A stretch of 32,000 bases of DNA, taken from the NCBI RefSeq assembly GCF_003010495.1, contig NZ_CP027570.1:990001-1022000 (forward strand), written 5' to 3'. The stretch is from Megasphaera elsdenii DSM 20460. GTDB lineage: Bacteria > Bacillota > Negativicutes > Veillonellales > Megasphaeraceae. The notes under the pieces were generated by a model. The model was not told where the DNA came from, searched no databases, and was given only the letters and a program-made list of their open reading frames with translations. Shown in pieces: positions 1,977 to 29,490 of the stretch (position 1 is the first letter of the stretch; each line of letters starts with the position of its first letter). Made by a program: the position numbers and the translations under genes.

Positions 1977-2075
1977 GTAGGGGACGTCCTGAAAGGCGTC
2001 CCGCTGTGATATTCGGCCATAGCCTTATTCTGGTATAATGGTAGGCTTTTGCGAGCCACGAACCACGAGCCACTG
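1977..2075 (+). repeat. Conserved intergenic element, copy 1 (REP-like hairpin + TATAAT box + heptad array)
   Basis: GTAG-GGGACGTCC-tgaaa-GGCGTCCC (1977-2002). Then CTGTGATATTCGGCCATAGCCTTATTCTGGTATAATGGTAGGCTTTTGCGA (TATAAT at 2034-2039). Then GAGCCAC GAACCAC GAGCCAC (2053-2073). Aligns closely by eye with 8541-8635 and 13983-14092. Confidence 0.8.
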
Positions 2076-2369: not shown

Positions 2370-2454
2370 TATCGCATATAGGCGATGGAGCCACGAGTCA
2401 CTGATTCTGTGTTATACTATGGGGTATATAGTTTATCATAAAGGGGGTCTCCAC

Positions 2455-5152: not shown

Positions 5153-5159
5153 AATTTTC

Positions 5160-5187
5160 GTGGCTCGTGGCTCGTGGCTCGTGGTTC
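5160..5187 (+). repeat. Heptad tandem array (GTGGCTC)x3 + GTGGTTC
   Basis: Starts 8 nt after the pepO-like stop (TAG at 5150-5152). Four contiguous 7-mers. Followed by hairpin TTCGCAGG (5185-5192) / CCTGCGAA (5211-5218), with no U-tract. Confidence 0.9.
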
Positions 5188-5266
5188 GCAGGGTGTCCTT
5201 GTTATGGCGGCCTGCGAACGGCGACCTGCGGCCTGCGTTCTCATAAAGTATTTACACAACTAATCC

Positions 5267-8540: not shown

Positions 8541-8635
8541 AGGCCGCCTGGATAAGGCGGCCCGATGTGATGTTCGACCACAGCCTATCCGAGTATAATG
8601 GCAGGCTTTTACGAACCACGAACAACGAGCCACTA
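8541..8635 (+). repeat. Conserved intergenic element, copy 2
   Basis: AGGCCGCC-tggataa-GGCGGCC hairpin (8541-8562). Then CGATGTGATGTTCGACCACAGCCTATCCGAGTATAATGGCAGGCTTTTACGA (TATAAT at 8594-8599). Then GAACCAC GAACAAC GAGCCAC (8613-8633). Collinear with 1977-2075. Confidence 0.8.
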
Positions 8636-8664
8636 TTTTTTCACGAGCCGAGGGTTACTCGAGG

Positions 8665-8759
8665 CGATGTCTTCAGTTTGAGTTTGACGCCGCGCAGCGG
8701 CATCTGAGTCTGAGGCGACCGGCGGGACCGTCAGGTCCCCGATTCGATGAACGATGAAC
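8665..8759 (-). repeat. Single inverted copy of the 93-bp repeat unit, plus a hairpin and a (GATGAAC)x2 heptad pair
   Basis: Reverse complement of 8665-8745 is GGGGACC-tgac-GGTCCC...CCTCAGACTCAGATGCCGCTGCGCGGCGTCAAACTCAAACTGAAGAC. This matches 2081-2128 (CCTCGGACTCAGATGCCGCTACGCGGCGACAGACTCAAACTAACAAC) at roughly 85% by eye. GATGAAC GATGAAC lies at 8746-8759. Confidence 0.7.
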
Positions 8760-9141
8760 GGCTTTTTTACCCATGTACTTGAGTGTCATTATCTTTTAAT
8801 TACAAAAATGACCACTTGCGACAAAAAAACGTCATTTTAGGACAAGTTTGTCTTATCCCCTCGTTTTATATCGTATAATGCAAGTAGATAAGAAACCCAT
8901 ATAACGAATGTATGAAATGTAAAAATGTAAACCTAAAATAGAAAGGGATGAAGTTATTAAAACTGATATTTTTATCAAACATTATTAAAGAACATGTGGA
9001 AGTATAACATTTAGCGAAACAATTTTATATCATATTAATTATATTATAAGTGAGAAAGACAATTGTCTATACAAATAAAAAATAATTAAAGCATTTTTAC
9101 GGTAAAATATTCTGGAGCTGAAAAAAAGGAGGCGAACATTT

Positions 9142-12100
9142 ATGAATAAGATTTACAAGGTAGTATGGAATACAGTTCGCAATTGTTACGTAGTCGGATC
9201 CGAACTGATTAGCTCGAAATCGGGCAGACATAGCGCATCGAATGGCAAGTCTTCGAGTTTGAAAGTTACTTTGACCGTACTAGCGCTCTGCGGGATGACG
9301 GCTTTAGGAAGCGGAGTGGTCCCGGCGTATGCGGCGGATGGCACGGGAGCTGTAACGGCAAAGAATCAATACGTCGCATTGAGGTTCTCTAGTCCTGATG
9401 ATGGCGATTCAAGAGCTGAATACCAGAATGGTCAATGGCATACTACTTTTAATGGAAAAAACTACGATACGGTTGACAGTGGTATGAAGGATAAATATAA
9501 TCAGCCTATTATCTATTGGGTCCGCAACGGCTATTCGCTGACCATAGTCGACGGCCAGCCTTATACGTCCTTGTCGGACAATGGCCGCCGGGCTGATGTC
9601 AGCTGGACAGATGATGCAAATGCCAAACCGTCGGATATCTTAGAAAGCGTTACTTCGACTCATGTCCAAACGAATGTGACGACCAATGTTGGCGAAACGT
9701 TGCAGCAAGTCAATGCTGGAACCTATGCTGGTGTGAGCAATTCTGATGGAACAGAGGTTAACGGCAAATGGAATTACATCGTCAAAGACTCCAGTTGGAA
9801 AGGCGTTGTCGACGCTTCGAATTATCGCAACGGGTATGCTGACTTAGTTTCTAGTGGCAAGCCTAGGGGCTTTGTCAGAACTACGGATGCTGGCTCTAAA
9901 TTAGCTTGGAACGCTACCCTTAGCGCATATACGTATAATGGAAAAGTTGTCGATTATAGCAATATCTATGTCATTGATGGGGAAATCGGTGTCTTCACCA
10001 ACGCTTCGGAATCAGAAGTCTATACAGGAACAGTCTTTGGTAAAAATAATGAAGTCTTGATGACTGTCAAGAAATCTGATGGCAGCTATTACAGCTATTG
10101 GGGCGCTGAAGTCAATGACGCTGGCGCTACGATGGATACCTATCGGGTAGCCGAATACCAGAAAGACCTCAACGTCTTGCGGGACAATGACTTTGCCCTC
10201 TATCATAACGATATTAAGTCCGTAGATATGAGCACGAACGATTCTTCGGCAACCATTTCCCTCATGCGTAATGGTGATGGTACGAGCAATCCTGCTGTCG
10301 ATGGAACGTTGACCATTACTAATGGTGGCGGCACAGGTGGTAAGGACACCTATGTCCGTATTTCCAACACGACGAATGGACAAGAAGTTTCTAAGACCTT
10401 TACGACAGGCTCGAAAGTCAGCGCCATTGGGTCAACTGATGCTACAACAGGACTGACGATTAATGGTGTCGATTACACGATTAAACCGGATGTCAGCTGG
10501 ACTGCCCAGGCTGGCGGTAAGGACGTCAATGCTGTCAATCAGAAAGTCAACTTTGTTGGAAGTGACCATATTACCGTTACCGGAACAGATGGTCAGATTA
10601 AATTTGAAGCTACTGGGTTGGCAGATACGGACCTCACCAATATCACGAACACGGCAGTAACAAAGATTCAAAACATCGCTAAAGGCGAAGATGTCCATAT
10701 CAAAGCCGATACCTATACGGTAGGTAATGATGGTTCCGTTACCATGACCTACGTCGATGGCAATGGCAATACAATTGATGGCACGGCCAAGATTACGGGC
10801 ATCGCCAAGTCGGATCTGTCGAATATCACCAATAAAGGAAATACCGTTATCAAGAATATTGCTAAAAATGCTGTGAAAGTTATTGGTGGGACGAACACGG
10901 CCGTTGAAACTTCGACGACAGATAATGGACCTGTGGAATACAAAGTCAATCTCAATAAAGATGTCAACTTGGGCGATACGATTCAGCTCAATGGCTCCGA
11001 TGGCTCCATCAGTGCTAAATCGGGCGGCGCGAGGTTGTCTTTCAACAACAACGGCTTGACGGTTTCCCAGGCCAAGAATGGCGTGACTAATGAAACGAGA
11101 ATCAATGGAGCTGAGATTACGGTCGACGGTGGTATCGGTAACCAGACAACTATCAAAGGTTCGATGGCTAGTATCGGCAGCGTCCTAGTCAACGGCGGTG
11201 GTGGAACAGCTACGATTAGTGGCCTGACCAATAAAACGACGAAGTACGCGGGTTTTGCAACATCTGGCCGGGCAGCAACGGAAGAACAGTTGAAAGAAGT
11301 CAACAGCAAAGCGACTGCAGCAAAGACGACGGTTACTAACGGCAAGAACATTACTGTCAACGAAGCGAAAGCAGATGATGGCAGCAGCACGTATACCGTA
11401 GGCTTGGCAAAAGATGTCGTTCTTGGCGACAATGCCATTAAGCTCAATGGCTCCGATGGCTCCATCAGTGCTAAATCGGGCGGCGCGAGGTTGTCTTTCA
11501 ACAACAACGGCTTGACGGTTTCCCAGGCTAAGAATGGCTTGACTAATGAAACGAGAATCAATGGAGCTGAGATTACGGTCGACGGCGGTATCGGTAACCA
11601 GACAACGATTAAAGGCTCGACGGCCCGAATTGGTAATGTCTTGGTTAACGGTGGTAGCGGAACGGCTACGATTACTGGCTTGACCAATAAAACGACGGAT
11701 TACACCGGCTTTGCAAACGGCAGTGGCCGGGCCGCAACGGAAGAACAGCTGAAAGAAGTCGACAGCAAAGCGGCAGCCGCAAAGACGACGGTCACTAACG
11801 GCAAGAATATCACTGTCGACGAAGCGAAAGCAGATGATGGCAGCAGCACGTATACCGTAGGCTTGGCAACAGATGTCGTTCTCGGCGACAATGCCATTAA
11901 GCTCAACGGTTCCGATGGTTCCATCAGTGCTAAATCGGGCGGAGCCCAGCTGGCTTTCAACAACAGCGGCTTGACGGTTTCGCAGGCTAAGAATGGCTTG
12001 ACCAATGAAACGAGAATCGATGGAGCTACGATTACAGTCGATGGTGGTACGGGTAACCAGACGATCATCAACGGTTCGACGGCTCGTATCGGCAGTGTCT

Positions 12101-13788
12101 TGGTCAACGGTGGTAGCGGAACGGCTACGATTACTGGCTTGACCAATAAAACGACGGAGTACACCGGTTTTGCAAACGGCAGTGGCCGGGCAGCTACGGA
12201 AGAACAGCTGAAGGAAGTTGCAGGCAAAGCTGGCGAAGCTATCGAAACGGCTGGCAAAGGCTGGAATCTGACGACTAACGGTAAAGAAGCTAGCAAGACC
12301 AACATCGCTCCGGACGGCACGGTAGACTTCTCCAGCAGCAATGACAATCTGATCATCAGCAATGCTGGCGCAAATCTCTCGTTCTCCCTCAGTGATAATC
12401 TCGACCTAACCAAGAATGAAGCTAATAAAGGCAGCGTCAAAGTCGGTAAAAATACGACATTGACAGATGGACTTCTCCAGGTCGGTAACTTGTCCCTGAC
12501 GGCAAATGCTCTCACAATTGACGGTTCGACCTATATCAGTGCCAGTGGTATCAATGCCAATAAACATAAAATCACCAATGTCTTAGCTGGGAAAGATGAT
12601 ATGGATGCAGTCAACGTCGGTCAGCTCAAATCGGCTATCCGCGATTCGCAAGTTTCCATCAAGGCTGGTGATGGCATCAGTGTCGCTAAGACGGGTAACC
12701 AGTACACAATCAATGTTAATATTGAAGGCGTTACCAATAACCAAGGCAAAGTAACGGTTTCGACAGGTGACAGCACTTCGACAGAAAGTGGTTCCGAATC
12801 CGGTTCGTCGGGCGCTAAGAAGTTCAAAGTCATGGACCTCATGTATCGGGCAGAATCTAATGAAGTTGCTCCAGAAACGACAACAGATACCGGTAAACCT
12901 ATGAAAATTGAAAGTATTCCGGAAGATATCAAGCTTGAAGCTGATGATAACCAGGCTGCCAGTGTCGTAAATGGTGAAACTATTAAGATTGCTGGTGATG
13001 GTACGAATATCTCGACGAAAGCTAACGTTACTGGAGCAGGCAGCATGGATACCATATCCGTTTCCCTGAAACCGGATATTCAAGTTGATAGTGTTACTAT
13101 CAACAATGGTGGACCGACCATTAATAATACTGGTATCGACATGAATGGTAAGAGCATCACCAATGTTGAAAATATTACCGTCAACAATGGTCCGACCATC
13201 AATAGCAGCGGTATCGACATGAACAGCCAGAAGATCATCAACCTGGCTGAAGGAGATATCTCCGAAACGTCGACAGATGCCGTCAATGGCGGTCAGCTCT
13301 ACAACACGAACCAGGCCGTCATTGCCAATGCGGAAAACATCAACAGCCTGAGCCATTCGCTCAACAAGCTGGACAGCCGCATCAACCGCGTCGGTGCTGG
13401 TGCAGCCGCGCTGGCAGCCCTCCACCCGCTCGACTTTGACCCGGACAACAAGTGGGACTTCGCAGCTGGTTACGGCAACTATGCTGGCGCTAATGCCGTC
13501 GCTATCGGTACCTACTATCGTCCGAACGAAAACACCATGTTCAGCATCGGTGGCAGCTTCGGCGGCGGTGAAAATATGATCAACGCCGGTGTCAGCTTCA
13601 AACTCGGCAGCGGTGGCAGCGGTATCACGACGTCCAAGACGGTCATGGCCAAGAAGATTAAAGAACAAGATGAACTCCTGAAAGCACAGGATGCTAAGAT
13701 GAAAGAACAAGACGAAAAGATTGCTAAACTGGAAGCTCTCGTAGCCCAGCAAGGCGAAATGATTCAGCAGGCACTTGGCAAGAAATAG
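9142..13788 (+). CDS. Trimeric autotransporter adhesin (type Vc, YadA-like), 1548 aa, with ESPR signal peptide and post-anchor coiled coil
   Basis: AAGGAGG RBS. N-terminus MNKIYKVVWNTVRNCYVVGSELISSK is an ESPR-type extended signal, followed by ...ALGSGVVPAYA|ADG. DAVNVGQLK and DAVNGGQLYN are Hep_Hag/neck-type motifs. The C-terminal four-strand anchor runs AGAAALAALHPLDF...GVSFKLG, followed by a ~60-aa K/E/Q-rich heptad tail. Confidence 0.93.
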   Translation: MNKIYKVVWNTVRNCYVVGSELISSKSGRHSASNGKSSSLKVTLTVLALCGMTALGSGVVPAYAADGTGAVTAKNQYVALRFSSPDDGDSRAEYQNGQWHTTFNGKNYDTVDSGMKDKYNQPIIYWVRNGYSLTIVDGQPYTSLSDNGRRADVSWTDDANAKPSDILESVTSTHVQTNVTTNVGETLQQVNAGTYAGVSNSDGTEVNGKWNYIVKDSSWKGVVDASNYRNGYADLVSSGKPRGFVRTTDAGSKLAWNATLSAYTYNGKVVDYSNIYVIDGEIGVFTNASESEVYTGTVFGKNNEVLMTVKKSDGSYYSYWGAEVNDAGATMDTYRVAEYQKDLNVLRDNDFALYHNDIKSVDMSTNDSSATISLMRNGDGTSNPAVDGTLTITNGGGTGGKDTYVRISNTTNGQEVSKTFTTGSKVSAIGSTDATTGLTINGVDYTIKPDVSWTAQAGGKDVNAVNQKVNFVGSDHITVTGTDGQIKFEATGLADTDLTNITNTAVTKIQNIAKGEDVHIKADTYTVGNDGSVTMTYVDGNGNTIDGTAKITGIAKSDLSNITNKGNTVIKNIAKNAVKVIGGTNTAVETSTTDNGPVEYKVNLNKDVNLGDTIQLNGSDGSISAKSGGARLSFNNNGLTVSQAKNGVTNETRINGAEITVDGGIGNQTTIKGSMASIGSVLVNGGGGTATISGLTNKTTKYAGFATSGRAATEEQLKEVNSKATAAKTTVTNGKNITVNEAKADDGSSTYTVGLAKDVVLGDNAIKLNGSDGSISAKSGGARLSFNNNGLTVSQAKNGLTNETRINGAEITVDGGIGNQTTIKGSTARIGNVLVNGGSGTATITGLTNKTTDYTGFANGSGRAATEEQLKEVDSKAAAAKTTVTNGKNITVDEAKADDGSSTYTVGLATDVVLGDNAIKLNGSDGSISAKSGGAQLAFNNSGLTVSQAKNGLTNETRIDGATITVDGGTGNQTIINGSTARIGSVLVNGGSGTATITGLTNKTTEYTGFANGSGRAATEEQLKEVAGKAGEAIETAGKGWNLTTNGKEASKTNIAPDGTVDFSSSNDNLIISNAGANLSFSLSDNLDLTKNEANKGSVKVGKNTTLTDGLLQVGNLSLTANALTIDGSTYISASGINANKHKITNVLAGKDDMDAVNVGQLKSAIRDSQVSIKAGDGISVAKTGNQYTINVNIEGVTNNQGKVTVSTGDSTSTESGSESGSSGAKKFKVMDLMYRAESNEVAPETTTDTGKPMKIESIPEDIKLEADDNQAASVVNGETIKIAGDGTNISTKANVTGAGSMDTISVSLKPDIQVDSVTINNGGPTINNTGIDMNGKSITNVENITVNNGPTINSSGIDMNSQKIINLAEGDISETSTDAVNGGQLYNTNQAVIANAENINSLSHSLNKLDSRINRVGAGAAALAALHPLDFDPDNKWDFAAGYGNYAGANAVAIGTYYRPNENTMFSIGGSFGGGENMINAGVSFKLGSGGSGITTSKTVMAKKIKEQDELLKAQDAKMKEQDEKIAKLEALVAQQGEMIQQALGKK
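10945..12225 (+). repeat. Three tandem ~456-459-bp (152-153 aa) near-identical repeats inside the TAA stalk
   Basis: CTCAA(T/C)GG(C/T)TCCGATGG recurs at 10987, 11443 and 11902. The repeated peptide is LNGSDGSISAKSGGARLSFNNNGLTVSQAKNG.TNETRI.GA.ITVDGG.GNQT...LVNGG.GTATI.GLTNKT...GRAATEEQLKEV. Confidence 0.95.
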
Positions 13789-13840
13789 TGCCATCCAGAA
13801 GGCTTCGCGTGAAGGTTCCGGCCATCATGCGGGGCCTTTT

Positions 13841-13875
13841 GATGTTTGATGTTTGATGCGTGATGTTTGATGTGA
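13841..13875 (+). repeat. Heptad tandem array GATGTTT GATGTTT GATGCGT GATGTTT GATGTGA
   Basis: Five contiguous 7-mers about 50 nt after the TAA stop codon. Confidence 0.9.
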
Positions 13876-13938
13876 TAATGTGGATTTTGGGAGGCAGGCC
13901 GCAAAAAAACACGGCCAACGGCCTTGTGCGTAGTATGC

Positions 13939-14092
13939 GTAGGGGCCGACCTTTAACCTCTCAGACCGCCTTTGGCGGCCAGCTCCCCTATAAAGGGAGC
14001 CTTGTGAGTCCCGTTGTGAGATTTCATTACAGCCCATTCGAGTATAATGGCAGGCTTTTACGAGCCACGAATCACGAACCACGAGCCACTAA
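13939..14092 (+). repeat. Conserved intergenic element, copy 3 (with extra GTAG-headed GC hairpins upstream)
   Basis: GTAGGGGCCGACC at 13939. CCGCC-ttt-GGCGG and CTCCC-ctataaa-GGGAG hairpins. Then GTCCCGTTGTGAGATTTCATTACAGCCCATTCGAGTATAATGGCAGGCTTTTACGA (TATAAT at 14043-14048). Then GAGCCAC GAATCAC GAACCAC GAGCCAC (14062-14089). Confidence 0.8.
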
Positions 14093-14103
14093 TTTCTCTT
14101 TTG

Positions 14104-14145
14104 GTTGTAAATGCAACAGAAATATTCCTTTCTTTTTGTTATACT
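14104..14145 (+). promoter_or_regulatory. Candidate hcp promoter: extended -10 plus an upstream imperfect palindrome (possible CRP/FNR-family, HcpR-like site)
   Basis: TG-T-TATACT (14137-14145). GTTGTAAATGCAAC (14104-14117) has inverted GTTG/CAAC ends and is centred about 41-42 nt upstream of the TSS predicted from the -10. Confidence 0.35.
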
Positions 14146-14222
14146 TTACGTGTACTCGATAAGAGCTGCGAATTTTGAATCACCCATTCATTTATATGTC
14201 CATAATATAGGAGGTTTTCCCC

Positions 14223-15835: not shown

Positions 15836-15872
15836 AAAAGAGGCTGTCCAATGCGACAGCCTCTTTTTTTTT
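15836..15872 (+). terminator. Intrinsic terminator after hcp
   Basis: AAAA, then GAGGCTGTC (15840-15848), loop CAATGC, GACAGCCTC (15855-15863), then a T9 run. Confidence 0.85.
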
Positions 15873-15889
15873 CGCCTGTATGCGATTTC

Positions 15890-16072
15890 GTAGGGGACGT
15901 CCTGTCAAGGCGTCCAGCCTCTGCTGTCCGTTTTGGCGACCGTCTTGCGCCTTCCGTTGGTCGGCACCCGATGGGTCAAAAAGGCTTAGGACGGCCCCTA
16001 CGGAGGCCCCGATTGGGGCGCTTTAGCGCCCTAACTACTTGCGGAATTGCCTATTCTACGGTAATATAAACG
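15890..16072 (+). repeat. Diverged or mosaic copy of the REP-like element cluster, ending in a TATAAT-box-like segment before ppiB
   Basis: GTAGGGGACGTCC-tgtcaa-GGCGTCC (15890-15915) is nearly identical to 1977-2002. GGACGGCCCCTAC (15990-16001) and the GGGGCG-cttta-GCGCCC hairpin follow. GCCTATTCTACGGTAATATAAACG (~16049-16072) resembles GCCTTATTCTGGTATAATGG of copy 1. Confidence 0.6.
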
Positions 16073-16111
16073 TATACTAATCTTATTATATGCAAATGGG
16101 AGGCTTTTACT

Positions 16112-16598: not shown

Positions 16599-16868
16599 AT
16601 GTTGTATTATACGTATATGGTGCGCTGTGCCGACCAGTCTTTATATACGGGCTGGACGCTGGATGTAGCCAAACGGGTGGCAGCGCACAATGACGGCAGA
16701 GGGGCCAAGTATACCCGTTCCCGTCGCCCTGTGACCCTGGCCTGGTGCCAGGGTTTTCCTACAAAACACGAAGCGATGCATTGGGAATGGCAGATCAAGC
16801 AGTGGACGAGAAAGAAGAAGGAGAAGCTCTGCCGGGAACAGCTTTCCGTAACGGATGAGGAAGGATGA
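16599..16868 (+). CDS. GIY-YIG nuclease-domain protein (UPF0213 / YhbQ-like), 89 aa
   Basis: YTYMVRCADQSLYTGWTLDVAKRVAAHNDGRGAKYTRSRRP matches the GIY-YIG pattern (Y..V...LYTG...R...H..G.GAKYT). Starts 8 nt after the ppiB stop. Confidence 0.85.
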   Translation: MLYYTYMVRCADQSLYTGWTLDVAKRVAAHNDGRGAKYTRSRRPVTLAWCQGFPTKHEAMHWEWQIKQWTRKKKEKLCREQLSVTDEEG

Positions 16869-19482: not shown

Positions 19483-19605
19483 GGAAAGGGCTGACGCCCT
19501 TTCCAGTGGTTCGTGGTTCGTAAGCGGGCCGATAACCCTGTGGCGCCCCTACTTTTAAATTTAAAACCATCCACTAACCCCTAGCCACTAACAACTAACC
19601 ACTAA
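19483..19605 (+). repeat. Intergenic mosaic: 9-bp-stem hairpin, (GTGGTTC)x2, a CCCCTAC head, and five CCACTAA-type heptads
   Basis: GGAAAGGGC-tgac-GCCCTTTCC (19483-19504, no U-tract). GTGGTTC GTGGTTC (19507-19520). GGCGCCCCTAC (to 19552). CCACTAA CCCCTAG CCACTAA CAACTAA CCACTAA (19571-19605). Confidence 0.85.
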
Positions 19606-26602: not shown

Positions 26603-26756
26603 TTTGTAGTATAATGTTTGCAGTACGAAGTAGTATTTGCTTGATTTATCGCTTCGTTGCTAAAATAATCAGCACTATATCGAATGGGCTATGGTAAAAT
26701 CTCACAGTGGGCCGCCCTCTGGGACGGCCCCTACGCAGCTAACTGCTAACTGCTAA
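26603..26756 (-). repeat. Inverted, partly degenerate copy of the conserved intergenic element, flanked by heptad arrays
   Basis: Reverse complement of 26682-26737 is GCGTAGGGGCCGTCC-cagag-GGCGGCCC-ACTGTGAGATTTTACCATAGCCCATTCG, which matches copies 1 and 3. The TATAAT-box and heptad part (26603-26681) is decayed to GT-phased 7-mers (GTTTGTA GTATAAT GTTTGCA GTACGAA GTAGTAT). CAGCTAA CTGCTAA CTGCTAA lies at 26736-26756. Confidence 0.65.
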
Positions 26757-27905: not shown

Positions 27906-28604
27906 TTATTTCAAAGGCCTCATTTTGCCGATGCAGCGTTCATCATGCTGCTGGTCCATCATTTCCACGCGGCGCTGCAGGATGGCTACCTGATGCTGCA
28001 AGGCAATAATCTGGTCTTCGATGGGATCGGGCAGGCGGTTGTGATTGAGGTCGACGTCGCGTTCGCTGTGGCTGGCTTTGATGCGTTTGCCCTGCTGGAC
28101 GACGACGCGGCCCGGGATGCCGACGACTGTCGAGTACGGCGGCACTTCTTTGAGGACGACGGAACCGGCGCCGATTTTTGCGCCTTCGCCGACGGTAAAG
28201 GAACCGAGGACTTTGGCACCGCAGGCGACGACGACGTAGTCGCCGATGGTCGGATGGCGTTTGCCTTTTTCCTTACCCGTCCCGCCGAGGGTCACGCCCT
28301 GATAGAGGGAAACGTTGTTGCCGATGACCGTCGTTTCTCCGATGACGATGCCCATGCCATGGTCGATGAACAGGCCTTCGCCAATCTGGGCGCCGGGATG
28401 GATCTCGATGCCCGTGAAGAAGCGGGAAATGGTGGAAATGATGCGGGCCGTGACAAACCACTGATGCTTGTAGAAGAAGTGGGCCAGGCGATGGGCCCAG
28501 ATGGCATGAAGGCCGGAATAGCAAAGCAAGACTTCCAGCGTATTCTTAGCAGCTGGATCGCGGTCCTTGATGACGCGAATGTCGTTGCGAAGTGATTTGA
28601 ACAT
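27906..28604 (-). CDS. cysE: Serine O-acetyltransferase, 232 aa
   Basis: [27 protein letters not shown] and [27 protein letters not shown], with hexapeptide repeats. AGGAGGG RBS. Confidence 0.93.
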
Positions 28605-28635: not shown

Positions 28636-28884
28636 TAAATAAAAAAGACCTGCCGTCATACAGAGACGGTGGTCCGTGGTTCCACTCTGATTGCAGTCCT
28701 TAGACTGCCACTCAATACCCGTAACGGCGGCAACCGGGATGACCTACTCGCGTTCAATCATCCTGCTCCCAAAGGCATTCCATCACATTCAACTTCGATA
28801 GGGGCTTTCAGCCGATGGCCCTTACTCTCTGTGCCGTTATCCTGTGTGTACTTGTTTTGGTCATTGCATTTTTGTTTTCGTGTT
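28636..28884 (-). promoter_or_regulatory. T-box riboswitch leader (cysteine-specific) controlling cysE(-cysK)
   Basis: Minus strand, 5' to 3': AGAGAG/GTAA stem-I elements (~28825-28835). Tandem GAAUGU/GAAUGC specifier candidates (codons at 28785-28787 and 28775-28777). T-box sequence AATCAGAGTGGAACCACGG (28693-28675; consensus AAnnnGGGTGGnACCGCG). Terminator GACCACCGTC...GACGGCAGGTC plus T6 (28674-28641), which overlaps the T-box as expected for the antiterminator/terminator switch. Confidence 0.75.
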
Positions 28885-28919: not shown

Positions 28920-29490
28920 TAGAAAGATCCTAAAAAGATGACAAAATTGGTATCTTATTCAAAATGGCCGTTAGAATCGCTTTCTTTATATATCTATATA
29001 AGGGCATTTGCAGTTTGTAGTTTGTAGCAGTGGGAGTTTTGTTGGTTGTCGATACATAAAGACTCATCATTTTTGATTAAATTTGTCTGCATACAATATC
29101 CATGTTTGGTAGACATGAACTGTATTCGCTCCAATCAATGGTATAATATAAAGCAAAATGAGTTTAATATGATTTAATGTAATTTTAAAAATCTAAAAAT
29201 ATCATTACAAAAACACATGCTTTAGTGTAGTTGAATAAAGTATATGGCGGTAATAAGCCGTTTTTATAAAAATTTTATCTATAAAAAGCATAGAGTACTA
29301 AAAGAATACCATATTAGTAATGAATGGATATATAACTAAAAAGCATAGGTACATATTCAAGGTTTCTCATTTTGTATTACTCATTTTTCTATACTTATTG
29401 CACTTTACGCATGAAATGGTATACTTATGGTAAATACTTTACTTCATAGTATTCGTTGTAGTTGTAATTTATAAGTAAAGAGGTGTGAAA

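Follow-up and report, generated by a model that had tools for sequence, protein, structure and literature searches.

Repetitive extragenic palindromes (REPs) of the GTAG-tagged type are recognizable by the GTAG that heads their GC palindrome (PMC3733652, PMC3333891, PMC3479197). In the arrangement known as the REPtron, the gene for a REP-associated tyrosine transposase (RAYT) is flanked by its REPs, and it is deleted in some strains (PMC3733652). Abundant REPINs, which are dispersed doublets of inverted REPs, have been reported for RAYT groups 2 and 3 only (PMC5581495). Here, we analyzed a stretch of 32,000 nt from the genome of Megasphaera elsdenii DSM 20460 (contig NZ_CP027570.1, positions 990,001 to 1,022,000; hereafter, the window), in which a conserved intergenic element of approximately 100 bp carrying a perfect TATAAT had been noticed and tentatively interpreted as a mobile promoter or the start of a small RNA (the original prediction). 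The element is likely to represent the half adjoining the REP in a selfish repeat that is composite and non-autonomous, resembles REPINs and the REP-containing bacterial interspersed mosaic elements (BIMEs), is linked to a RAYT and is specific to the M. elsdenii group, and its TATAAT module is probably neither a dedicated promoter nor a small RNA gene.

The repeat family and its REP hairpins

Copies were detected by a repeat search of the window, by nhmmer with a 72-column hidden Markov model (HMM) of the core, and by exact and mismatch motif counts compared with shuffled sequences. Three collinear plus-strand copies form one repeat family (D5; 2001-2073, 8561-8633, and 14010-14082) and share the 22-mer GTATAATGGYAGGCTTTTRCGA (2033-2054, 8593-8614, and 14042-14063), which occurs exactly 3 times in the window and is not expected in shuffles even with 3 mismatches. 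The TATAAT hexamers of copies 1, 2, and 3 lie at 2034-2039, 8594-8599, and 14043-14048, respectively, and the core HMM recovers all 3 copies with E values of 1e-19 to 1e-23. An inverted decayed copy, consisting of a REP (GTAGGGGCCGTCCCAGAGGGCGGCCC) and the left half of the core, is located on the minus strand between convergent genes (26640-26734; inverted repeat I7); the core HMM matches it at 26676-26715 (E = 2e-6), and the arms 14010-14041 and 26680-26711 are 81% complementary. GARCCAC dimers number 13 in the window against 0.01 expected. The collinear copies, the inverted copy and the layout of a GC hairpin upstream of the core with 3 to 4 GARCCAC heptads, all anticipated by the original prediction, are thus borne out. 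By contrast, the core HMM has no match, even at E ≤ 50, at the 2 partial boxes that had been proposed at 16049-16072 and 2404-2420, which coincide with the promoter-like regions of ppiB and queC themselves, and the AGCCT...AGGCT inverted repeat thought to flank TATAAT shows no covariation, is frequently broken and is not kept across copies. As a separate observation, the ribosome-binding region of ppiB (16095-16110, AATGGGAGGCTTTTAC) is identical to the core segment AATGGCAGGCTTTTAC at 15 of 16 positions (nhmmer E = 0.05), a likeness that may be due to chance or represent a relic.

The full unit measures approximately 210-230 nt and comprises, in an order that is constant in aligned copies, an A-run with a small hairpin, a GTAGGGG-headed REP, the TATAAT core, (ACGAGCC)n heptads, a module denoted m5, and an inverted REP, with (GCAGGYC)n heptads preceding the A-run. 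In copy 1, sequence reading and motif searches delineate a 5' boundary module on the plus strand, with the A-run and a short GC hairpin (AAAAATGCCCCAAGCGGGGTTTT; 1954-1976), followed by the left REP, that is, the GTAGGGG head, overlooked in the original prediction, and a GC-rich hairpin (GTAGGGGACGTCCTGAAAGGCGTCCCG; 1977-2003). Next come the core module (CCCGCTGTGATATT...GTATAATGGTAGGCTTTTGCGA; 2000-2054), which is the element originally described, 3 CGAGCCA heptads (2052-2073, detected with Tandem Repeats Finder, TRF), the m5 module (CCTCGGACTCAGATGCCGC...CTCAGCGCG; 2074-2155) and, on the minus strand, the inverted right REP (2156-2181). The A-run and hairpin, with stems differing by compensating changes, precede most copies. 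The core consensus reads CCCG-YTGYGAGATT...CACAGCC.ATTCGAG-TATAAT-GGCAGGC-TTTTACGA, then (GCCACGA)n heptads, with TTAC conserved after the core; the heptads number from 0 to 17 (mode 3-4), and their number differs among strains at one site. The m5 module, of approximately 75 nt, usually follows the heptads in either orientation, and an inverted GTAGGGG hairpin often comes next. Part of m5 and the inverted REP of copy 1 are present as 3 tandem 93-nt copies (2097-2375; repeat family D3, TRF), with inverted REP heads at 2156-2181, 2249-2274, and 2342-2367. The right end of this mosaic is an ATCGCA..GGCGA mini-hairpin with 2 heptads (2371-2401, plus strand; sequence reading and motif search), located directly 5' of a TGTGTTATACT box resembling the queC promoter; the same sequence is also found 3' of the RAYT-flanking units of loci L031 and L040 described below.

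The REP hairpin is the structured part of the unit. Across 22 aligned copies, 86% of the cells are paired, 3 pairs are changed on both sides, and none of 500 shuffles reaches the score. The compensatory stem changes (GGGGCCGCC/GGCGGCCC, GGGGCTTCC/GGAAGCCC, and GGGGACGCC/GGCGTCCC) show that the stem sequence varies among subfamilies with pairing retained. GTAGGGG is present within 110 nt upstream of 192 of the 240 cores in the loci listed, and in the window GTAGGGG with a hairpin starts at 1977, 13939, and 15890 on the plus strand and at 26734, 2181, 2274, and 2367 on the minus strand. When the region 1975-2190 is folded as single-stranded DNA (ssDNA), the 2 inverted REPs of copy 1 pair in a stem of approximately 33 bp (z = -4.1), yielding a REPIN-like unit at 1977-2185. 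The spacer between the paired REPs is approximately 150 nt long and asymmetric, and many copies, including copies 2, 3, and 4, lack one REP. A complementarity between GTAGG and TTTTAC suggested by RNAalifold is accompanied by no compensatory change and was set aside as a mere lead.

Copies 2 and 3 depart from this layout. In copy 2, a degenerate REP hairpin, the GTAGGGG head of which has decayed to GCAGG (8541-8564, by sequence reading), precedes the core and heptads (8561-8633; repeat search, HMM, motif counts, and TRF); the right part (8643-8760; I1-I3 and TRF) carries m5 at 8643-8715 in the orientation opposite to that in copy 1, with a GC hairpin and heptads of the type CGATGAA beyond it. 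Copy 3 begins with a GCAGGCC heptad remnant followed by an A-run and hairpin (AAAAAAACACGGCCAACGGCC; 13893-13935), a type of 5' boundary that recurs in many copies and also lies directly 3' of the RAYT stop codon. The left REP of copy 3 (13939-14013) is followed by the core and 4 heptads (14010-14089; repeat search, HMM, and TRF), and the copy has no right REP, abutting instead the unique region just upstream of hcp; these copy 2 and 3 features all lie on the plus strand. The hairpin loop of the copy 3 REP is interrupted by a nearly invariant insertion of approximately 57 nt (ACCTTTAACCTCTCAGACCGCCTTTGGCGGCCAGCTCCCCTATAAAGGGAGCCTTGTG; 13952-14008), seen in aligned copies; the insertion is present in many copies, contains 2 small hairpins, has no match in Rfam, and looks like a nested element. 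Two minus-strand fragments are absent from the original prediction, as are the 93-nt tandem and the region 8643-8760, which belong to the mosaics of copies 1 and 2. One fragment is a deletion derivative with (GCAGGYC) heptads, a short spacer and GCGA(ACCACGA)n that lacks both REP and core (5157-5237; I6, I14-I17, and TRF), and in the other a REP (GTAGGGGCGCC...GGCCCG) is fused to TTACGA and heptads, again without a core (19500-19552; motif search). A pair of REPs of the same family (15872-16001; heads at 15890 on the plus strand and 15990-16001 on the minus strand) encloses an ATCGCA hairpin and a different interior without a core. Heptads are not confined to the family: among the 28 tandem-repeat rows of the window, 11 have a period of 7, all of them intergenic (2052-2073, 5158-5188, 5207-5237, 8611-8633, 8745-8760, 13838-13873, 14060-14089, 19506-19521, 19587-19605, 26738-26756, and 29007-29027). 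Their repeat units are unrelated (CGAGCCA, GCGACCT, CGATGAA, TTTGATG, ACTAACA, GCTAACT, and TTTGTAG, the last containing GTAG); a preference throughout the genome for such heptanucleotide microsatellites beside terminators and REPs would be unusual.

The family extends well beyond the window. A scan for the 22-mer in one genome per species (185,579 species) returned 23 matches at 20 loci, all in Megasphaera, namely, in 5 species-level genomes: M. elsdenii, M. intestinihominis, Megasphaera sp. WILCCON 0056, and 2 metagenome-assembled genomes. A metagenome scan with the TATA positions left unconstrained added at least 119 core loci, mostly from the human gut. Given this spread, the family is dispersed, and a purely local duplication fails to account for the similarity among the copies. 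With nhmmer, at least 219 core copies were found in the metagenomic and earlier loci, with 169 unique core sequences among the matches listed. Clustering by flanking genes gave at least approximately 98 distinct intergenic sites in the sampled loci, which cover M. elsdenii-group genomes and gut metagenomes: 59 between co-directional, 25 between convergent, and 14 between divergent genes. Among the loci listed, 76 copies in co-directional regions share the orientation of the genes and 10 oppose it; the latter 10 and the 35 copies in convergent regions face the 3' ends of genes. This distribution matches that of REPs, which have been reported between unidirectional and convergent open reading frames (ORFs) (PMC3733652), and not the expectation for a promoter cassette. 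The 76:10 co-orientation (88%) is real but ambiguous, as it could reflect either strand-specific insertion into ssDNA in a genome with gene-strand bias or selection; the GC skew of the window was too weak a signal to assign the replication strand. One complete unit, from heptads through inverted REP, was also encountered on an 18-kb contig classed as viral (L051, IMGVR_UViG_3300029417_000091; 1540-1900), just after a 463-aa ORF with a C-terminus resembling a helix-turn-helix by eye; the contig could be a prophage or misclassified.

Putative RAYT genes and strain turnover

We compared the window with sister strains, that is, contigs encoding the Hcp and QueC proteins of the window. Four of these loci (L029, L031, L040, and L043) encode a 149-aa protein with a Pfam Y1_Tnp domain (E = 2.4e-8), the best NCBIfam match of which is REP_Tyr_transpos, the REP-associated tyrosine transposase family (E = 1.4e-19). 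The sole PDB match is the E. coli TnpArep structure 4ER8, which is weak (E = 2.3e-4, query residues 66-142), although the H-x-H and WQ..F.EH..RN motifs are matched in the alignment, and homologs with 40-45% identity are named RayT. In L031, L040, and L043, the gene is located between the amino-acid permease gene and queC, the region occupied by copy 1 in the window; in L029, the same gene is present in a different arrangement, and a comparison of L031 with L032 places it in at least 2 genomic contexts across the samples. In L029, L031, and L040, GTAGGGG REPs in inverted orientation, each within full units, stand on both sides of the gene (...GTCCCCTACGG upstream and GCGTAGGGGCCG... downstream). 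Two full units precede the gene, the nearest of them ending in the upstream REP sequence, and the stop codon of the gene is followed immediately by heptads, an A-run, a hairpin, a GTAGGGG REP, the core, heptads, m5, and an inverted REP. Judged from these sequence features, the 149-aa protein is likely to be a RAYT-type HUH/Y1 transposase and the partner of the repeat family, in a REPtron arrangement.

Between the permease gene and queC, the window has exactly the same sequence as HE576794.1, also from DSM 20460, and carries no RAYT gene. This intergenic region, copy 1 included, looks like the scar of a RAYT deletion, with the outer units fused and the three 93-nt repeats present. Two other RAYT lineages from Megasphaera, with 47-50% identity, likewise have GTAGGGG hairpins and m5-like modules as flanking sequences, yet no TATAAT core, and the core is therefore a lineage-specific module lodged between REPs. 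Further RAYT lineages (n = 3, 44-50% identity) were noted in L047 (1-450 and 903-1250), L050 (586-2110), and L131 (6258-6686), those of L047 and L050 amid densely packed GTAGGGG hairpins that have other modules between the REPs, which suggests that several REP/RAYT systems co-exist in the genus. In the complete genome L045 (CP199043.1, 1274-2600), a separate IS200-like element, which has its own hairpin ends and encodes a 151-aa Y1 transposase on the minus strand, is inserted within the second 93-nt repeat, between ACTCAAA and CTGACAAC (corresponding to approximately position 2214 of the window).

Strains with identical Hcp or QueC proteins differ in the numbers of units, heptads, and 93-nt repeats, in the presence of the RAYT gene and in whether a given position reads TATAAT or TTATGG. 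Thus, the 93-nt repeat is present 3 times in the window, as in HE576794.1, and twice in strain L039, and the core variant at a given position alternates between GAGTATAATGGCAGGC and GATTATGGTGGTATGT. The mosaics upstream of hcp differ strongly among identical-Hcp strains, measuring 434 nt (the window-type copy 3), 1,015 nt or, with the RAYT gene present, 504 nt, with the unique sequence just 5' of hcp remaining constant; the 1,015-nt version contains 2 cores and several m5 and REP modules, and the adhesin gene is missing. In the hcp-ppiB spacer, strains differ by a clean 113-nt indel of m5 that adjoins the REP pair at 15872-16001, and several mosaic breakpoints map to hairpin loops. A trimeric autotransporter adhesin gene (9142-13788) is enclosed by copies 2 and 3; its product measures 1,548, 2,322, 1,415, or 507 aa in the identical-Hcp strains (L021-L030), or the gene is absent. 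We considered whether strains lacking the adhesin are simple recombinants of copies 2 and 3, but the mosaic does not fit, and we claim no more than the bracketing of a variable segment. The adhesin gene itself contains internal repeats of 456-459 nt (10809-12230).

Several neighboring features were observed along the way. The segment upstream of hcp at 14100-14150 (TTTTGGTTGTAAATGCAACAG...TTTTTGTTATACTTT, enclosing GTTG-N6-CAAC) is conserved in all strains whatever the mosaic to its left, and its sequence may represent a regulator site, perhaps of HcpR/FNR type, with an extended -10 box. In L025, L026, and L028 (2540-2975), an unrelated insertion of approximately 395 nt, with several hairpins and a TGGTATAAT box, separates the promoter-like box of hcp from its ribosome-binding site. 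A T-box leader (Rfam RF00230, 110.5 bits) occupies 28659-28873 on the minus strand, upstream of the minus-strand gene at 27906-28604. A GIY-YIG gene in the ppiB-M48 peptidase operon (16599-16868) was considered because Ssn GIY-YIG nucleases act on hairpin repeats in Neisseria (PMC11893778), but nothing was found to identify it as an Ssn or to tie it to the present repeats: the 89-aa product is of the UPF0213 type (PDB 1zg2, E = 5e-22) and has no NCBIfam match, and the gene is not flanked by repeats.

Proposed mobilization of the units and the role of TATAAT

The element is evidently dispersed, intergenic, and mobile or recombining. In the mechanism that we favor, the RAYT would recognize the GTAG head and its hairpin on ssDNA, cutting and rejoining the strand there and thereby dispersing pairs of REPs together with the intervening sequence. 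The strain-specific mosaics would then arise as copies undergo homologous recombination and gene conversion with one another, as the heptads and 93-nt repeats slip, and as breaks occur in hairpin loops. On this account, TATAAT would be a passenger motif within the spacer between the REPs rather than the reason for the existence of the family. Several points weigh against this account. No transposition event was caught, no clean pair of filled and empty sites was found for a whole unit in the strains compared, and no target-site rule could be derived; the 113-nt, 93-nt, and RAYT presence/absence indels are all explicable by recombination or slippage. The RAYT gene is absent from the window, and its NCBIfam score (70.4 bits) is below the curated cut-off of 80. 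Either the GTAG head or the right REP is missing in copies 2 and 3, implying that many copies are fragments. The co-orientation with flanking genes described above could reflect selection on a transcription-related role. Finally, TATAAT is intact in 65% of the unique cores among the matches listed and some copies have a TGn-extended -10, and thus there may be some promoter activity.

The leading idea of the original prediction, that TATAAT is a functional sigma-A -10 box spread through the genome to drive or modulate the downstream gene, now appears unlikely. It draws on the perfect hexamer in the 3 window copies and in 110 of 169 unique cores among the matches listed, even though the search left TATA unconstrained; on the TGn directly preceding the hexamer in copy 1 and some other copies; on the gene orientation shared by 76 of 86 copies in co-directional regions; and on a second REP-adjacent module that also carries TATAAT (GTAATATAAT). 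However, a sigma-70 scan of the window called none of the 3 TATAAT sites, because there is no -35 box: no hexamer with at least 4 of 6 matches is present at 16-18 nt from any of them. The TGn extension occurs in copy 1 alone among the 3 window copies and in a minority of the family; GAG, not TGn, precedes the hexamer in 98 of the 169 unique cores. Among these cores, the hexamer columns are conserved no better than GAGATT, CACAGCC, or TTTTACGA, and the critical A2 is changed in approximately 19 unique cores compared with approximately 4 for T3. TATAAT is mutated in approximately 35% of copies (TATGAT, TTTGAT, TATCAT, TATAAC, TCCAAT, and TTATGG-type variants), and orthologous positions in sister strains, including the L022 ortholog of copy 3, read TTATGG or TATGAT or are otherwise mutated. 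Furthermore, in all strains, whatever the mosaic upstream, a TGnTATACT box is retained in the interval that separates the element from the start codon of queC and of hcp, and other downstream genes likewise have their own promoter-like boxes; the distance from the element to the next start codon ranges from less than 20 to more than 900 nt. Convergent sites outnumber divergent ones, and with the inverted copy lying between convergent genes and approximately one-third of the family copies also failing to do so, TATAAT does not always point at the downstream gene, contrary to what had been stated. Some copies may nevertheless give weak outward transcription. A family of small structured or cis-regulatory RNAs, started at TATAAT or antisense to it, is extremely improbable. 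The dispersal and conservation of an intergenic sequence that contains a -10-like box would be in keeping with it, but Rfam has no match at the element at either the gathering or the E-value threshold, the RNAalifold consensus energy of the core is close to zero on both strands with covariation confined to the REP hairpin, and the predicted transcript would be a heptad run of variable length, with no terminator found 3' of the core; the copy 3 fold is no better than shuffled (z = -0.6). Since RNAalifold detected no structure beyond the REP hairpin, a sequence HMM was used in place of a covariance model. What stands of the original prediction is thus the dispersed, mobile or recombining element in which TATAAT is the majority state; the promoter-cassette and small RNA functions are not supported.

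Other readings concern what the units do or how they move. The REP might serve the host in cis, as an mRNA stabilizer at 3' ends, an insulator or terminator, or a site for a nucleoid protein or gyrase, roles that have been described for E. coli REPs and BIMEs (PMC3333891, PMC3733652) and would be compatible with an origin through RAYT. Most copies occupy co-directional or convergent sites 3' of coding regions and show a strong tendency to run in the same direction as the genes, and the A-run and hairpin of the 5' boundary make a terminator-like hairpin with a T-run on the opposite strand. Yet most copies are beyond the terminator of the upstream gene and would therefore rarely be part of an mRNA, and the fast gain, loss, and decay among strains with identical flanking proteins argues against strong selection on single copies. 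We regard such a host benefit as rather unlikely, a protein-binding insulator being a possible secondary role. It is very unlikely that the units are ordinary miniature inverted-repeat transposable elements with no relation to RAYT, derived from an insertion sequence of the DDE type and showing terminal inverted repeats along with target-site duplications: the 2 inverted REPs do act like terminal inverted repeats of approximately 33 nt, and the 113-nt m5 indel is bordered by a direct repeat of 5 nt (GGGCG), but the units end in GTAG-tagged hairpins such as RAYTs bind, the sole transposase found adjoining the REPs, in 3 lineages, is a RAYT homolog, no consistent target-site duplication was seen around the units, and the modules occur in both orientations and as fragments. 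A bolder version of the RAYT account, which we consider improbable, is that Negativicute RAYTs disperse REP doublets carrying a functional package, made up of a terminator-like hairpin that faces backward, a -10 box that faces forward and heptads that are prone to slippage and start at the conserved TTAC. The majority state of TATAAT, the 88% co-orientation among the loci listed and the unusual abundance of period-7 arrays near REPs are compatible with such cargo. If it were true, each unit would function as a directional boundary of transcription or as a tunable promoter facing outward, and RAYT cleavage and rejoining would be recorded in the 7-nt register (TTAC/GAGCC AC/GA...).

Relation to known systems

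The literature searched contains no description of such repeats in Megasphaera, nothing linking RAYTs to REP families of Firmicutes and nothing relevant on transcription starts in M. elsdenii. The REP/RAYT system is thus new for Megasphaera and the Negativicutes in that literature, the kind itself being already known, and it widens REPtron biology, for which most descriptions come from Proteobacteria, to include a Negativicute of the gut and rumen. For annotators, the perfect TATAAT repeated across these intergenic regions is to be treated as repeat cargo, not as promoter evidence. The repeats may also fragment draft assemblies of Megasphaera, because several matches are on short contigs or near contig ends. 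As they bracket a variable adhesin gene and mark the comings and goings of RAYT, the units are likely recombination substrates behind strain differences, and the heptad and 93-nt copy numbers, which differ between near-identical strains, might be used as minisatellite-like typing markers.

Among modular intergenic repeats of Firmicutes, the BOX elements of Streptococcus pneumoniae (boxA-boxB(n)-boxC) have internal tandem modules that vary in number, as do the heptads and the 93-nt repeat in Megasphaera. Unlike the Megasphaera units, BOX elements are not known to carry GTAG-tagged hairpins or to have a RAYT as partner, and there is neither sequence similarity nor an Rfam match. The mosaic intergenic arrays of Neisseria (NIME/dRS3 and Correia elements), in which hairpin repeats bracket exchangeable units beside variable surface-protein genes, are a further parallel, and Correia elements can carry outward promoter boxes. 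The Megasphaera counterpart is the strain-variable trimeric autotransporter gene bracketed by units. However, the Neisseria dRS3/NTS repeats are CGTC-tagged and associated with the Ssn GIY-YIG nuclease rather than a RAYT (PMC11893778, PMC3733652).

The closest resemblance is to the REPs and BIMEs of E. coli, which are GC-rich imperfect palindromes with a conserved GTAG head (PMC3333891, PMC3479197, PMC3733652), form mosaic clusters of alternating orientation with conserved motifs in between and are extragenic, mostly following genes. The RAYT gene flanked by REPs and deleted in some strains corresponds to the E. coli REPtrons. The differences are that the host is a Negativicute (Firmicutes/Bacillota) and not a proteobacterium, that the RAYT aligns weakly with E. 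coli TnpA-REP over the residues given above, and that the inter-REP segment is much longer than BIME linkers and contains TATAAT, a heptad microsatellite, and an invertible module. With the REPINs of Pseudomonas and Enterobacteria described by Bertels and Rainey, the units share inverted REPs that can fold into one long hairpin and are dispersed as doublets (PMC3116915, PMC5581495), and, as in REPIN-RAYT systems, they are linked to a RAYT, which is absent from most of the loci sampled here. Classical REPINs, by contrast, measure approximately 70-110 nt and have a short spacer and a symmetric stem, whereas the spacer of the Megasphaera units is long, asymmetric, and modular.

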